DNA of 64,000 bases, from the NCBI GenBank assembly GCA_024679065.1, contig JAGIQG010000015.1:38812001-38876000 (forward strand), written 5' to 3'. The number at the start of each line of letters is the position of its first letter. The first letter of the stretch is position 1. The notes beneath the pieces were generated by a model. The model had not been told where the DNA came from, searched no databases, and saw only the letters and a program-made list of their open reading frames with translations. The stretch comes from Sphyrna mokarran. Lineage: Eukaryota. Positions 21,849 to 49,295 of this stretch are shown piece after piece. A program made the position numbers and the translations under genes.

Positions 21849-22130
21849 GTACTGGTTGTAAATGTTTGGTACCTAATAGAAATTTGTTTATAAGCCCATT
21901 TCTGGATTAGAACTTAGTCTTTACTGTAAACATTAATCGGTATGTTGGAAGCTGTATCAGACTCCAAGTATTTCATTTGTTAATAAAGCCAAATTTGGAT
22001 TGATAATTTAATCAACTTTTCACTACAGAAGTGACTTGATTTTGGTTTTTGGCTATAGTTTTTATATAGAAGCCTCATTGTCCAGAATTAGCTTTTGGGC
22101 AATAATTATGAGCCACCTGTCACATGTTTT

Positions 22131-22234
22131 TGTGTCTGTGTGCGTGTGTCTGTGTGCGTGTGTCTGTGTGCGTGTGTCTGTGTGCGTGTGTCTGTGTGCG
22201 TGTGTCTGTGTGCGTGTGTCTGTGTGCGTGTGTC
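22131..22234. repeat. Perfect minisatellite (TGTGTCTGTGTGCG) x7 plus partial unit
   Basis: 14-bp unit read directly. Confidence 0.97.
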
Positions 22235-23411
22235 CTCCAGCAATATTGTTGCCTTTTTGTGTTTTTAAGGTGAAAATGTTCTCTGAATTATGTGAAGTAC
22301 TTAATGATGGTCGAGTGGCTGTCAGTGTTGAGTTGGTGGATGACTGCACCACTTAATGTAGCATTAAATCATATGGACCAGTAAGATCCCGGATTTGTGC
22401 TGTTAATTCTGTGCTTGGAGGGATGGGTGGAAGGGGAGAAACGGTACTGCAGTTCACTTTGAATTTGTAAGGTGGAGTGGGTGGTAAGAGAAAAAAGCAT
22501 GTGTTTAGCCATTAAGTAAAAACAACCTTATGGTAAAATGGTCAATGGTCAATGTTAAATGGAAGAATGGTTGGTATGTGTAGGAGATACCTGTGGAACA
22601 ATGACCCAATATGCTTTGGACCCTTTTGGGAAGGGCTGGAGCAAATGCATTACCCATTTTGCAATGAGTTTATTTACTTGGTAATTACTACTGACTGAAG
22701 CAGAAAATATCATTTTCTGCTTCAGTTTTGCAATATATAACCTTTAGTGAATAATTAGATTTGATATTCTTACCACCATGCATACTTCCTCAGTTAAATG
22801 CTTTTTGCCATTGTTTTTCCAGTCTGATCAATTGCAATTACTATTCTCCAACATTTAATAAAAAATGAAGTCTTGTGTATTTAAAAGTAACTGCATTGAA
22901 TCTGGGATTCTACTGCATAATTCAATGCATTGCCTAAAAAAAGTTTACATTTGGAAAACTTAGGTTTCTCAAAGGCCTTCTGAAATATAGCCAAAAACCA
23001 ATTGGAGTCTTGCCACCAAGGGTTTGGCGGAAAAAAGGGAAATTACTAGAGCCTCTAATTTGTTCTTTGTTCTAATTAAATGGAGTGACTGAACACAAAA
23101 GTTTTCACTGATCTGGGAAAGCCATCATGGATTTGTAAAAGGTAGATGAATCTTTTGAAAAGACGACTGAAGTAGTGGATAAAGTGTTTATCTATATGGA
23201 GTTCCAGAGGGCTTTTTTGATAACATCCCTCATAATTAATTATCAGTAAAAGTTGAAGGTCATGAATTGAAGGAAGATTATTGACCTGGTCACAAATTGG
23301 CTCAACAGGAGGAGACTGAGTGTAAGGCAGACACTCAGTTGGCAGAATGTGATTAATGCTATTGCATGTAGATGTATTAGGGCCCTAACCATTTGCTATC
23401 TTTAATGACAC

Positions 23412-27235: not shown

Positions 27236-30200
27236 GTGAATATCTTAGCTGGGAGGTTAGCTGGAGTGTTTCGGCAGGATTTAAACTAATATGGAGGGGG
27301 GGAGGGGACGAGACCGATAGCTCGGTAGAGAGCGATATGGGAGATAGAGTAAGTTTGGACAAGAAGAGATGCACCGGGGAGGAGGAGGTTCCGAGTGGGC
27401 TTGGAGGTCTGGAGTGTGTTTCAATGCGAGGAGCGTAACGGGAAAAACGGATGAACTTAGTGCCTTAATGTTTGCGAGGAAATTGGATGTGGTTGCAGTG
27501 ACAGAGACGTGGTTAAAGGAAGGGGAGCAGTGGCAACTGAACATTCCTGGGTATAAGTGTTTCAGGTGTGACAGAGGAAGGTCCAGAAGAGGTGGGAGAG
27601 TGGTGTTGTTAGTTAAGGAGAGCATCACGGCAGTGCAGAAGGAGGACAATACAGAGGAGTTAGGAGTGGAGTCACTGGGTGGAGTTGAGGAATAGAAAGG
27701 GGACAATTACTATGCTAGGGTTGTATTATAGGCCACACAACAGCCCACGGGCAGTTGAAGGCATATTAAAGACATTTTGGATAGGTGCAGAAAGAACAGA
27801 GTCGTTATAGTGGGAGATTTTAATCTCCCTAGGGTGGATTGGAAAGTACCTAGAGCTGGGGGTTTGGTTGGGCAGGAATCTGTAAAATGTGTACTGGAAG
27901 GATCGTTGGAGCAGTATGTGGCAGCCTGACTAGAGAAGGGGCTATATTGGATTTAGTTCTGAGTAATGAGCCAGGGCAGGTGGTTGATGTTGTAGTAGGG
28001 GAACATGTGGCTAACAGTGACCACAATTCTGTCTACTTTAGGATTCAGATGGAAAAGGATGCTTGTTGCCCTAGGGGCAGGGTGCTGAATTGGGGGAAGG
28101 CTAACTACGGTCGAATTAGGCAGGAACTTAGGGAAACTGATTGGGAATGGTTGTTTGAGGGTAAGTCCACGCTAGGCATGTGGGACTCTTTCAAGGGAAT
28201 ACTGAAAATGTTGCAAGATAAGTACGTGCCGGGCAAGAGGAAAGATGGGAAAGGTAGGATTAGAGAGCCGTGGATTACTGGGGACATTGAGGACTTGGTT
28301 AGGAAGAAAAGAGAAGCGTATGATAGGTCGAAGCAGCTGGGAACCGAGACAGCATTGAAGGAATATAGAGAGAGTAGGAGGGAGCTCAAACAGGGAATTA
28401 GAAGGGCAAAAAGGGGGCATGAAATGATTTTGGTGGATAGGATTAAGGAAAACCCAAAGGCTTTTTACTCCTATGTTAGGAATAAAAGGGTGGTTAGAGG
28501 AAAAATCGGACCTCTTAAGGACAGAGGAGGGGAACTGTGCTTAGAGGCCGAGGGAATGGCGGAGATCCTGAATGAATACTTTGCGTCGGTATTCACGAAG
28601 GAGAGGGGCTTGTTGAGGGAAATATCCGTACCGAGGGAGGAAGTGTTAGAGCTTCTAGGTAGCATTAAAACCAATAAATCTCTAGGGCCTGATGGCATTT
28701 ATCCCAGACTGCTTAGAGAGGTGCGAGGTGAAATTGCTGGGCCTCTAACACAAATCTTTGTCTCTTCCTTGGACACAGGTGAGGTCCCAGAGGACTGGAG
28801 AACAGCTCATGTTGTACCATTGTTTAAAAAGAGTCGTAGGGATAACCCTGGAAATTATAGGCCGGTGAGTTTGACATCAGTGGTAGGGAAGTTGTTGGAG
28901 GGGATTCTTAGAGATAGGATGTATAGGCACTTAGAGCGTTGCAATCTGATTAGGAATACGCAGCATGGATTTGTTAAGGGGAGGTCGTGCCTTACAAATC
29001 TGGTAGAATTTTTTGAGGAGGTGACGAAAATGTTGGACGAAGGGCGAGTCATTGATGTCGCCTGTATGGATTTTAGTAAGGCATTTGACAAAGTCCCTCA
29101 TGGGAGATTAGTCGAGAAGGTCAAGGCAAATGGGATACAAGGACAGGTAGCTAGATGGATAAGCAACTGGCTTGGTAATAGAGTAATAGTGGAAGGGTGT
29201 TGCTCTAGCTGGAGGTCGGTCACTAGTGGTGTGCCGCAGGGCTCGGTACTGGGAGCTCTTCTATTTGTAATATATATAAATGACTTGGAAGAGGGAGTAA
29301 GTGGAGTGATCAGCAAGTTTGCAGACGATACAAAGATGGCTGGACTTGCGGATAGTGAGGAGCATTGTCAGGCGATGCAGCAGGACATAGGCTGGTAGCT
29401 TGCGCAGAGAGATGGCAGATGGAATTCAATCCTGATAAATGTGAGGTGATGCATTTCGGGAGAAAGAATGTAGGGGGGAGATGTATGATAAAGGGTAGAC
29501 CTATTAAGAGTATAGAAATGCAGAGGGATCTGGGGGTGCAGGTGAACAAGTCTCTGAAGATGGCAGAGCAAGTGGAGAAGGTTGTGAAGAAAGCATATAG
29601 TATGTTAGCCTTTATAGGAAGGGGTATAGAGTACAAGAGCTGGCTTTTAATGTTGCAGTTGTATAAAACGCTGGTTAGACCTCATTTGGAATACTGTGTC
29701 CAGTTCTGGTCGCCTTACTACCGGGAGGACGTGGAGACTCTGGAGAGAGTGCAGAGGAGGTTTACCAGGATGCTGCCTGGTATGGAAGGTCTGAGTTACG
29801 AGAAGAGATTAGGCAAATTGGGACTGTTTTCCTTAGAAAGACGTAGACTTAGAGGAGATCTGATAGAGGTGTACAAGATTTTGAAGTGGATAGATAGAGT
29901 AAACAGGGCTAAGCTTTTTCCTAGGATGGACTCGAATAGCACAAGGGGTCACGGGCTTAGGGTGAGGGGGGGGGGTAAGGTATAATTTGGATGCTAGAGG
30001 GAGTTTTTTCATAGAGGGTGGTGGGGGTATGGAATGCACTGCCAAGTGAAGTGGTGGAGGCAGGTACTCTGTAGTTATTTAAGAAATACTTAGATGGGCA
30101 CATGAACAGAATGGGAATGGAGGGGTATAGAAAACTGATTTAAAATAGGGATCATGAGCCTTGGGAGTCCCTGGGAAGTGTGTAAATAGATGATGATATT

Positions 30201-30673
30201 GATGTACTTGCTTTTATCCCACAGGTGCTTTGGTCCACCTTGTTGTCTAACAAGGGGCATACACGCGATGGGTCGTGAGGGCTGCTCTTGGACCTTTTTT
30301 GAGAGTATCCTCGTGCTTCACGTCGTTAATGTATGCTTGACCTGGACCATCTGATGGGCAACACGACAGCGCAGTGACTAACGCTGTGCTGTGCAGATAC
30401 ATGGATTTGGGCCTGTGTCTGTGGGAGTTTGCGCATTCTCCCTGTGCTTGCGTGGGTTTTCTCCAGGAGCTCCGGTTTCCTCCCACATCCCAAAGATGTG
30501 CTCTTAGGCTGATTGGCAAAACAAATTCTCCCTAAATTGTCTCAAATTTGGTTTTTAATCCATAGATCTATAAACATGGACAGGGATCGTGTATAGAAGT
30601 GGGAACATTGAGGTGGCGGCGCGGGCACGTTGAGCCGAAGGGCCTGTTTCCCATGCTGTTTTGTTCTTTGTTC
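27236..30673 (+). mobile_element. Young CR1-clade LINE (copy 3, longest): ORF1 C-terminus, ORF2 (EN+RT) with few frameshifts, ~530-nt structured 3' UTR with V-SINE domain
   Basis: ORF1 end NILAGRLAGVFRQDLN* (stop 27287-27289); FNARS, VTETWL, VGDFN, SDHN; 503-aa ORF 27887..29398 with QHGF..GRSCLTNL, GVPQGSVLG, KFADDTK; ORF2 ends near 30142 (EGYRKLI*); tail (ttgttct)n. Confidence 0.95.
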
Positions 30674-31864
30674 ACACGAAGCTGTTCTCATGCTGGCCAG
30701 CATGTCTGATCACATCTTTAGGAACTTGAGCACATTCTGATATGCAAAATGCCTAAAACTTCATATTTAACAGAACCTTTGGCATCCTTGGGAGCTTCCA
30801 AAGTTATTGACGTCTAGTAACTGTTGCTTCGCAAGCAAATGCGGCAGCCAATTTGCGCATGGCAAGATCTCGAGGTAACGCGGTAAGCCATCTAAATGCG
30901 TAGGTTGATGCCCTAATGTATACACCATCCTGGCTGCCCTTTATTCCCTCACACCCTACACTTTGGAAGATTCCCTGGATATCTCAAGTTGCTTTTAGTT
31001 GGTTCTTGCAGTTTCCATTGAGTTTTAGGAAAATAATTACAAGTTTTAGCTCTTAAGTATTTAGTAATTATCTATATCACATCTAATTGATATCTGGTGT
31101 GCAAACCTGGTGAGTACTGACTCTACTAAAACTCCAGGATATTAAGTGTTTGTGGCAAATTTTAAGATGCCCTTTCCGGGGAAGTTTGTCCTTAAGTCTT
31201 AAGCAAGGAATCCTGAGATTCTTGGGTTTTTGTCTAGCTCTAGGTAATTCAACTAATTTCCCAAAAGTGTAAGCCCGATTCAGATGCTCCCCACCCCCAT
31301 TCAACCATAGCTTTGACAACCAGTCACATTGTGAGGATGTGATATGTGATTAGTGGATCTCCAGTGCATTTTTTCATCCCAGCAACTGCCAAAGATATTT
31401 GGGCAATTAAAAAATTTGCACGGTATATTGTTGAAACCTAGCTATGTAAATCAAAGTATTCAGCAGATGTTTATCTGCATCTGCTTTTTTACTTTGGGGT
31501 TATAACCACTTTATTTACTGCCCTTCCCAAAACTCCCAAGTTTCTCTTTTTCCTCCTGTGCTTTTTACTGAGGGACGACTGATTTCAATCTCCATCTCAA
31601 GTCTCCTTTCTCTTCGAATTCATACCCTCCTTTTTACTAACCTGACTTTCTTTTGTGTCTGCTCCCAAGGAGAAAACAATCTTCAATTTCCTCACGCAAA
31701 CTCTCAATTGCCTCGGCTTTCACCTTCCATAAACAACAATAATAATGCAGTTGATACTGTCACAATGAAACCTTCATCCACTTCCACTGTAGCAATTGTT
31801 CCCATCTTTGCTCCCTCAGCTTCAAGGGTGCAGCGTAACTGACCCAAAAAGGATTGATTTGGCT

Positions 31865-46759: not shown

Positions 46760-49295
46760 ATACAACAATGGGAACCCTTTAAAGAGCATATAGATTGGGT
46801 TCATCTAGGCACACTTCCACAAGGAAAGCAGAAGGGCACTTCAAAGGTACAGTTTCCTGGATGACAGAAAATAGAAAGATTAAAATTAAACAGATGAAGA
46901 AGCTTTTGATGTCAGGTAAAGACATAAGTAAGTAAAGAATACTCGTAAAAAAGTGAAATGAAAAAGGGAGTAAGGACAAAAATAGTTATAAAAAAACAAA
47001 TTAGTAAGTAATATAACAGGGTATGTAAAACTGGTTTATAAACATTGGTAAATATAATCCAAGGGTGGGGTCAACTAGGGTTCAAATATGAGATTATCTT
47101 GTGGAAATCAGAGAGCATGCCCATGCAACAAATGATCACTTTTCATGTCTTCATTAAAGAAATGAATGTTGTCAATATGAGAAATTTTAAAAATATGCAC
47201 AAAAATACATACTTAAGCTAGCATTACTCTAATTGAAGAAACACCTGGTCACAATTAGATAGATCTTGGGTTCCCTAGAAAACCAAGGATGGAAAATTGC
47301 CAAGACTTTGGCCACAATTTTTGAATCCTCAAATCTGGAAGCAATGATAGTGGACATGAAGCAAATATTATACTGCTGTTCAAAGAAAACCAAATTATTA
47401 CAGGTCAACAAGCTTAGAGATGGATATAAATTTGGAGATACTCTGAACATTAATCTGGGACACAATTAATTGGCACTTGGAAATATATGGGTGAATAAAT
47501 GAAAGTCAGCAGAAATATGTTGCTGACGAATCTTATTTGCAAATTTGAGTTAGTCGAGGTGACAGAGGGTGATCAGCATGGTACAGCTGATGTATATATG
47601 GACTTCGAAAAGACATTCGATACAGTGCCCTATAAGATTGTCAAAACTAAAGCCCATGGAATTTATTAGATAAAAAAATTAACTGAGGAAGAAGTTTCAG
47701 TATGGTTAATGTTTGCTCTCAAATTAGAGGAAAGAATAAAATGTATTTATACAAACTTTGGCCAGAGTTCAAACTACAGATTCTGTAGTTGGAATAGTTG
47801 GAACTACAGAATCTTGGGTTGAGAGGATAGAATTTCAAAGTTTACAAACACAAAATGCAAATGCGGTGAAAATGAGAAGCATACTAACACAAATGCTAAA
47901 TGATTAACTTTGCTAGGAAGAAGGAGGAGAGGCAATACCAACAAGATATCACAATTTTAAAGGACTGCAGGAACAGAGTCTGTGGTGTATGTACACAGGT
48001 CTTTTTGAAGAGAGCATCACAAGCTCCCTTCAGTTGTTAGGAAGCAGATATGATCCTTGGCTTTATATAAATAGAAGAATTTATTACAAAAGCAAGGACG
48101 TTCTGTTTAAATTTTAAGACATGCTTAGCTCCCAACTTGGATATTAAACCATGTTTGAACCCTGCACTTTAAAAAGTATAACAATGGCACAAAGGAGGTG
48201 CAGAGATTTAATAGCATGGAACTAGGGATGAAAGACTTATGTGGAGAAACCATAGAAATTGGGACTGTTCTCTTTTAAGGAAATAGGGTAAAGTGAATTT
48301 ACTTTAATGGTCAAAATCTTGAAAGGTTTGATACGTTAAATAAGGAGAATCTTTCACATAGCAGCTGGTTGCCTTTTTCCCCCCCTTATAATCTGCACTC
48401 AATAAATTGAATTGCTTTGAAAGACGTCGGCTTAGAGGGGATCTAATAGAGGTGTATAAGATTATAAGGGGTATAGATAGAGTAAATGGTGGTAAACTTT
48501 TTCCACCTTCAGAAATGGATAGGACGAGGGGTCATGGCCTTAGGGTGAGGGGGGCTATGTATAAGACGAATATTAGAGGGCAGTTTTTCACACAAAGGGT
48601 AGTGGGGGTGTGGAATGCACTGCCGAGTAAGGTGGTGGGAGCAGGCACGCTAGGGCTGTTTAAGGGTCTCTTGGACAGCCACATGAGCGTATGCAGATAG
48701 AGGGATATAGTAGGACTGTTTAACTATGGCTTTTTTTCCACAGGTAATTCGGTCCATACTTGACCAACAAGGAGCATGCATTCGGCAGGTGGTGCGAGGA
48801 CAGCTCTTGGATGTTGATTCATGGGTTGCCTGGTGCTTCATGTCATAAATGAGTGCTTTATCTGGACCATCTGAAGGGCACCATGACAGCTCAGTGACTA
48901 TCGCTGTAGCTGTGCAGACACTTGGAATTGGGCCGGTGTCTGCGGGAGTTTGTGCATTCTCCCCGTGGTTGCGTGGGTTTTCTCCGGGCGCTCCGGTTTC
49001 CTCCCACATCCCAAAATTCGCTCTTAGGCTGATTGGGAAACAAATTGTCCCTACATTGAGACTCTTCCATATTAGGAATAACCTAAAATTAGAATAGGAT
49101 AATGGAATTGTTACTATATAGTTATGACGGCGGCGTGGGCTCGTTGGGCCGAAGGGCCTGTTTCCCGTGCTGTGTTGCTCTAAAAAAAAGTGTTCAAATA
49201 TTTGGAAAGGAAAAAATTGATGGGATATGGAAGAAGAGGAGATAATGAAAATTAATTAGCCCAGGTCAAGTGGGCAAATGCCCTTGTGTTTGATT
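46760..49295 (+). mobile_element. Ancient CR1 ORF2 remnant interrupted by copy 9
   Basis: Decayed YMDFEKTFDTVP and related motifs at 47100..48360; tail remnant at 49190..49295. Confidence 0.5.
48418..49181 (+). mobile_element. V-domain-carrying CR1-like LINE, divergent subfamily C (copy 9)
   Basis: ORF 48407..48700 is the ORF2 C-terminus; short spacer, divergent but structurally conserved module, V-domain, gggccgaagggcctgtttcccgtgctgtg tail. Confidence 0.9.

Follow-up and report, generated by a model that had tools for sequence, protein, structure and literature searches.

The host element and its lineage

The window, i.e. the whole 64-kb stretch of DNA analyzed here, contains on its forward strand a 5'-truncated and frameshifted copy of a CR1-clade LINE (27236..30673), which is evident from its open reading frames and from Pfam matches to Exo_endo_phos and RVT_1, belongs to a subfamily termed F5 and is 92% identical across 3.5 kb to the full-length copy L241. 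The features of the CR1 clade are all present, namely APE and RT in ORF2, an esterase-type ORF1 and a stem-loop tail with simple repeats, the esterase-like character of ORF1 having been read from the translation of a full-length copy and not from a Pfam scan. The parts of this copy discussed below lie on the same strand. As judged from the sequence and the subfamily consensuses, ORF2 ends with the stop codon at 30141..30143 (EGYRKLI*) and is followed by a variable spacer (30144..30198), a 3' splice-site-like motif, a structured region described in an earlier note and here called domain I, a captured V-SINE and finally a CR1/HER1-type 3' tail with TTGTTCT repeats (30614..30673). In this tail, 44 nt are identical across four consensuses, and a similar tail is found in CR1 copies without the module made up of acceptor-like motif, domain I and V-SINE. 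Among the matches listed, these other CR1 copies stop about 60-100 nt past ORF2 and carry no insert, and since they are many, the module is not needed by CR1 elements in general.

The genome (2.77 Gb) is rich in CR1 LINEs and in a tRNA-headed SINE. Their likeness to HE1/HER1, a pair listed for sharks and rays in PMC3747384, points to a shark or ray as the source. Seven copies of the element reside in the window and 14 were found in 800 kb of evenly spaced stretches, the latter corresponding to roughly 50,000 copies genome-wide; the density in the window (positions 1-64000) is thus about sixfold above that of the sampled genome. Exact anchors occur 18,732 times for F5 and 31,171 times for the adjoining SINE head. 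Copies of subfamily F1 (n=35) deviate by 1.4% from their consensus, those of F5 by 4% and those of F3 by 7.5%, F4 is older, and F2a and F2b are thinly represented by six copies and one copy, respectively. Copies were mostly gathered by similarity search, and set sizes are not to be read as proportions; the comparisons below draw on a single genome and on no more than five or six related sequences of subfamilies. In this sample the element is confined to one LINE lineage, just as the earlier note had proposed. Searches of 800 kb with an HMM or a covariance model revealed no homologues outside the lineage, weak matches being taken as free SINEs.

In the youngest subfamily, a run of A takes the place of the terminal TTCTTTG repeats (in 25 of 34 F1 copies and all eight copies lacking hairpin P2 of domain I, compared to none of 57 in F2a, F3 and F5), as seen at 48412-49190 of the window and in copies L111-L140 and L217-L224. 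According to section 15 of PMC13343379, Zenon elements are the only members of the CR1 group with poly-A tails. At the 5' end of the full-length F1 copy L236, which lacks P2, a monomer of about 180 nt occurs twice in tandem, and each repeat closes with a TATA-like box situated about 30 nt ahead of the start of the next unit; an acceptor-like motif resides inside each monomer and a donor-like site precedes ORF1. This tandem-monomer promoter layout presumably resembles that of mouse L1. A variant of F5 (L009, L021, L023, L026) has a common spacer deletion of about 45 nt that ends short of the pyrimidine tract. Apart from the LINE copies, the window features a TG-rich tandem array with a 14-nt repeat (22117-22248).

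Predicted fold of domain I

Folding, consensuses and aligned copies delimit domain I (30232..30348) as an element composed of helix P1, an optional P2 hairpin and a long bulged P3/P4 rod. With ViennaRNA, the helices were placed as in the earlier note, with P1 at 30232-37/30343-48, P2 at 30238-55, the P3 arm extending from 30257 to 30336 and P4 in terminal position. The window copy reaches an MFE of -52.6 kcal/mol (z -4.72), and none of 200 shuffles was as good. Four subfamily consensuses yielded z values of -3.0 to -5.1 in sense orientation and +0.5 to -2.0 as reverse complements, i.e. folding of domain I is confined to the sense strand. In 19 aligned copies, 90.5% of the pairing cells are compatible with the structure compared to 37-44% with the partners slid, a difference that is inflated because the structure was derived from consensuses of the same subfamilies. 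The probability of P1 in the full UTR context ranges from 0.01 to 0.99 across subfamilies, and in F2b, F3 and F4 long-range alternatives displace P1 and lower P3 unless the pair span is limited. Reading of the consensuses agreed with the statement that no reading frame is conserved past the acceptor; frames and stops differ between subfamilies, and a coding role downstream of the acceptor was rejected on these grounds.

The earlier note had placed a three-way junction at the heart of the element. This did not hold. A pattern for copies from which P2 is deleted has 2,379 exact matches and identifies a young, amplified subfamily. Three of the eight copies retrieved were folded and form a single rod of about -50 kcal/mol with a lengthened P1, and further pair-improving changes have been acquired in this subfamily. 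It is thus the bulged rod, and not the junction, that appears as the conserved unit. In three copies (L173, L175, L189) 5' inversions were noted, the junctions of which are situated near P1/P2.

Pairing through sequence change

That pairing survives sequence change was a further claim, and it stands in part: pairing is kept across subfamily consensuses beyond random substitution, but strong compensatory covariation is not seen, as changes are mostly one-sided. We took the substitutions observed between two consensuses and re-placed them at random on like bases. The observed substitutions kept the MFE better in six of seven directed comparisons (p 0.000-0.02; p 0.057 in the seventh) and retained more pairs in six of seven (p <0.004), the seven comparisons sharing branches and hence not being independent. 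In most comparisons, randomly placed substitutions cost about 10-20 kcal/mol more than the observed ones. In the consensus alignment, 31 of 94 paired and 16 of 34 unpaired columns are variable, and 217 of 235 cells pair. Double-sided change was found at six of 47 pairs in the 19 copies, a count also reached by 65 of 500 shuffles, and two of these six pairs amount to a CpG/CpG pair. Most pair changes in domain I are one-sided and mainly of the G-U type, and P1 does not show double-sided change in any copy aligned. The changes in copy 5 (37968), previously put forward as compensatory, may be private because no other copy of its type is present among the examined loci. Covariation is weaker, and topology less fixed, than first claimed.

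Between F2 and F3/F5, divergence amounts to 0.13-0.21 in domain I, 0.27-0.31 at four-fold ORF2 sites and 0.39-0.57 in the two variable UTR parts, with values of 0.07-0.11 for the SINE head, 0.04-0.08 for the V core and 0-0.05 for the tail. As far as these divergences tell, no part of the UTR other than the tail is conserved as well as the V-SINE block, which also surpasses domain I. In the comparison of F1 with F2a, domain I has diverged by 0.175 and four-fold sites by 0.098; F1 has changed faster in domain I and keeps 38 of its 47 pairs.

A captured V-SINE downstream of domain I

From 30356 onward the UTR can be aligned to the genome's free tRNA-headed SINE (63 copies) at 26-33% divergence. 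This free SINE we take to be HE1/V by likeness to the consensus of that family. Alignment and folding define domain II (30356..30451) as a stretch of captured V-SINE made up of the tRNA-derived head and the 5' V domain, with a predicted four-way junction and, in the oldest subfamily, a longer head. The junction is common to the free SINE (z -2.0) and the LINE-borne forms (z -2.1 to -4.6), and its pairs have changed from G-C to A-U at three positions and from A-U to G-C at one, with mismatches repaired. Intact A and B boxes are no longer present: the Pol III boxes were lost, the B box in steps, while the fold was kept. In F4 the full arm is retained and the B box has been turned into a perfect 12-bp stem, of which region later subfamilies deleted 18 nt. 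The 5' ends of copies show no preference for the SINE head (at most 106 of 31,171 in the pattern sampled), and about a third of the 100 cases listed are small deletions, as read. The V core, the most conserved part of the V domain (divergence 0.04-0.08), folds as a separate hairpin (30454..30484) in all four consensuses folded, and this hairpin is likely the stem-loop Vhc that the available text of PMC4758252 predicts for V-SINEs.

An acceptor-like motif upstream of domain I

The 3' splice-site-like motif (30199..30225) comprises a branch-point-like TTGAT, a pyrimidine tract and CAG|G (AG at 30223-24) and ends 7 nt 5' of P1. Neither this motif nor the V-SINE fold had been noticed in the earlier note. 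YAG|G and 13/16 pyrimidines are present in all six subfamily sequences and the branch-point-like word in five, in F1 and F2a overlapping the ORF2 stop codon. The distance from stop to AG is 21, 21, 81, 103 and 163 nt in five subfamilies. By a simple score of our own, the motif AG ranks first of 354 AGs in the window copy and is tied second of 529 in a full-length copy with a nested insertion. A rough neutral simulation of motif persistence gave p 0.01-0.06, values that are understated because F2b fails one criterion.

Foreign DNA upstream of the motif was detected at 26 of the 18,732 F5 anchors, compared to 33 cases at an internal control site (about half of them small deletions), and at eight F1 anchors. 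The upstream pattern for F5 samples about a fifth of sequences and the patterns overall about a fifth to a quarter; they would admit the donor ends that full-length copies have in their 5' UTR. None of these 26 F5 and eight F1 copies is joined to a 5' UTR donor. They represent scattered truncations, two duplicated pairs, three inversions, one small insertion and one LINE-internal join, and spliced or cleaved retrocopies were rejected as an explanation. A strong donor-like site is found a short distance ahead of the ORF1 start in one full-length F1 copy; a retrovirus-like donor/acceptor pair was dismissed with regard to the weak donor-like site in F5. In L177, ORF2 position 28720 is joined directly to 30225 at AG|GT with removal of about 1.5 kb and 6-nt microhomology, because of which splicing and deletion are indistinguishable. 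A strong donor-like AG|GTAAGT shortly ahead of ORF1 was also noted in other CR1 families (L087, L090). RNA contigs of four runs (three organisms and one metatranscriptome) cover domain I and as such indicate presence only; among the matches listed, none has a loose end at 30225.

Comparison with known RNA classes

In line with the earlier note, which had recognized no known RNA family, Rfam searches gave no match in the window and none at E <=10 in 30100-30700; a further search returned three chance snoRNA matches (E 1.2-2.7) away from the element. ARAGORN found no tRNA cloverleaf (0 genes). Motif scans relied on short core patterns run without positive control. In these, core words of hammerhead, twister and pistol ribozymes were not found on the sense strand of the subfamily sequences (one chance hammerhead word pair occurs on the antisense strand of F2b), the SECIS RUGA..AA..GA spacing was absent from the subfamily sequences, and so was the U-rich internal loop facing an A-rich tract that marks an ENE, U runs being confined to the apical loop of F5. 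The subfamilies share no register for an HDV-like nested double pseudoknot (P1/P1.1/P2/P3/P4), the descriptor being loose, without positive control and matching 12 of 20 shuffles. The dispensability of the modeled three-way junction argues against an xrRNA. Copies in genome order (20), a random sample and the subfamily sets all have scattered 5' ends, which pile up neither at the three sites counted nor among the copies sampled. Taken with the lack of a core motif in the subfamily sequences, this leaves the ribozyme that the earlier note had listed among the possible functions unsupported.

Metagenome and viral contigs do not contain an exact pattern match. Neither this UTR nor a V-SINE inside a CR1 3' UTR is described in the literature searched, which did not comprise Repbase, Dfam, subscription journals or supplements, and the same is true for the available portions of PMC3747384, PMC4824008, PMC5786205, PMC6887750, PMC3045867, PMC4758252 and PMC13343379. 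The subfamilies may have been deposited in repeat databases without structural annotation. As far as the structural models go, domain I is a real, lineage-specific structured RNA without a known family and part of a larger structured 3' UTR.

Possible functions of the structured 3' UTR

We tentatively favor a reading, rated a little short of even, in which domain I is a lineage-specific cis-acting RNA predicted to provide a protein-binding platform for export or stability of the unspliced LINE RNA. Within the lengthened CR1 3' UTR, this domain is predicted to form an elongated, bulged rod with or without a side hairpin, and the rod would act in cis, protein binding helping the unspliced full-length LINE RNA to accumulate or to leave the nucleus. 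Acceptor, domain I and V-SINE would have been gained as one piece by 3' read-through or by a template switch onto a CR1-tailed RNA, and the fold would have been kept by selection on master elements. We infer a single capture because the oldest subfamily already possesses all three parts; a source locus was not found. A role on the intact RNA is suggested because no processed or cut products were seen among the copies, and export or stability is preferred because of the position of domain I and a precedent in L1: the accessible part of PMC3045867 cites an NXF1-binding export element in the human L1 3' UTR and states that a synthetic L1 gained no retrotransposition activity when this element was restored. 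With the L1 element and with retroviral CTEs, domain I shares its location at the ORF2/3' UTR border or in the 3' region of an unspliced retroelement RNA. The long bulged rod presumably also resembles a CTE in shape, whereas the repeated NXF1-binding loop motif of CTEs is absent from all consensuses, the likeness being one of predicted fold and position. A wider interpretation as a multi-domain regulatory 3' UTR RNA, combining a working splice acceptor, a new rod for export of the unspliced RNA in the manner of simple retroviruses and the four-way junction of a domesticated V-SINE, seems rather unlikely.

The vicinity of the acceptor-like motif raises the possibility that the selected rod, located 7 nt past it, tunes its use and thus gives rise to a short spliced non-coding RNA or a terminal-exon signal. 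In an element rich in purines and with a spacer shrinking from 163 to 21 nt, YAG|G and the pyrimidine tract persist in six subfamily sequences, which would agree with this, as would the rough neutral simulation and the strong donor-like site ahead of ORF1 in one full-length F1 copy. However, not one of the 26 F5 and eight F1 copies with foreign upstream DNA is joined to a 5' UTR donor and the control site has more such matches (33), the donor-like site is weak in F5, the simulation p values are understated by way of F2b, the branch-point-like word overlaps the ORF2 stop in F1/F2a and loose ends at 30225 are missing among the matches listed; control of splicing is considered improbable. A self-cleaving ribozyme or processing site, be it HDV-like or an RNase P-type cut at the tRNA-like head, is very unlikely. 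The word UUCACGU resembles the loop of the CPEB3 ribozyme and CUGA resembles HDV J4/2, but in no subfamily does an HDV-like topology form in the register of these two words, the loose descriptor having matched 12 of 20 shuffles as well. Moreover, Rfam matches are lacking, 5' ends are scattered (26 of 18,732 near the acceptor and, close to where the SINE begins, 106 of 31,171, with many small deletions among these 106), and cutting would presumably separate ORF2 from the tail it needs.

Two further explanations concern the UTR as a template and as mere baggage. The structured UTR might, together with the 3' tail, help ORF2p to bind or position its template in target-primed reverse transcription. 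Domains I and II are situated 70-400 nt from the tail, which is invariant, conservation of the V block is strong, and tail recognition by CR1/L2-type ORF2p is established according to the passages available of PMC4824008. Still, CR1 elements without the module use a similar tail with a short UTR and domain I tolerates the loss of P2, and we regard this function as unlikely. It appears quite unlikely that domain I is a passenger, i.e. a stable hairpin rich in G-U pairs that was picked up by chance and is slowly decaying, for which recent origin, CpG decay and consensus smoothing mimic conservation. Few double-sided changes, the loss of P2 and the faster change in F1 fit such a scenario; against it stand the extra 10-20 kcal/mol that random substitution costs in most comparisons and the flanking UTR parts of the same age, which diverge two to three times more.

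Relation to known elements and implications

HE1 is described as a V-SINE of sharks and rays with HER1 as its partner LINE (PMC3747384, in the text available). The likeness to V-SINEs lies in domain II and the V core, both of which can be aligned with the genome's free tRNA-headed SINE, whereas here the SINE body resides inside the 3' UTR of an autonomous LINE, the Pol III boxes are lost, the junction is kept by double-sided change and domain I is without a counterpart in the free SINE. The MITE MER6 provides a parallel, as it is likewise a transposon that captured a V domain with loss of independent SINE transcription, but it is portrayed in the accessible text of PMC6887750 as a non-autonomous DNA element without an RNA step, whereas the LINE-borne V block passes through an RNA stage and has stayed conserved in subfamilies that amplify. 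With ordinary CR1/HER1 elements the host shares the clade and a similar tail with terminal stem-loop; its UTR, however, is about 530 nt long instead of about 60-100 and carries the acceptor-like motif, domain I and the V-SINE block.

The 3' UTR of a LINE is commonly regarded as a short tail that serves recognition. Here, about 330 nt of structured RNA are under apparent selection and include a fold without a known family. What the conserved central domains of SINEs do is described as unknown in PMC4824008, as far as its text was available. In the element studied here, a V domain is found in an autonomous element without a Pol III promoter and in young subfamilies (about 1.4% from consensus). 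If the multi-domain reading were true, the conservation of the V domain, for long without an explanation, would reflect the maintenance of an RNA fold by which retrotransposition is boosted in cis. Natural variants, either without P2 or with a long versus a short SINE arm, together with the young subfamilies make the function of the V domain testable in a retrotransposition reporter.
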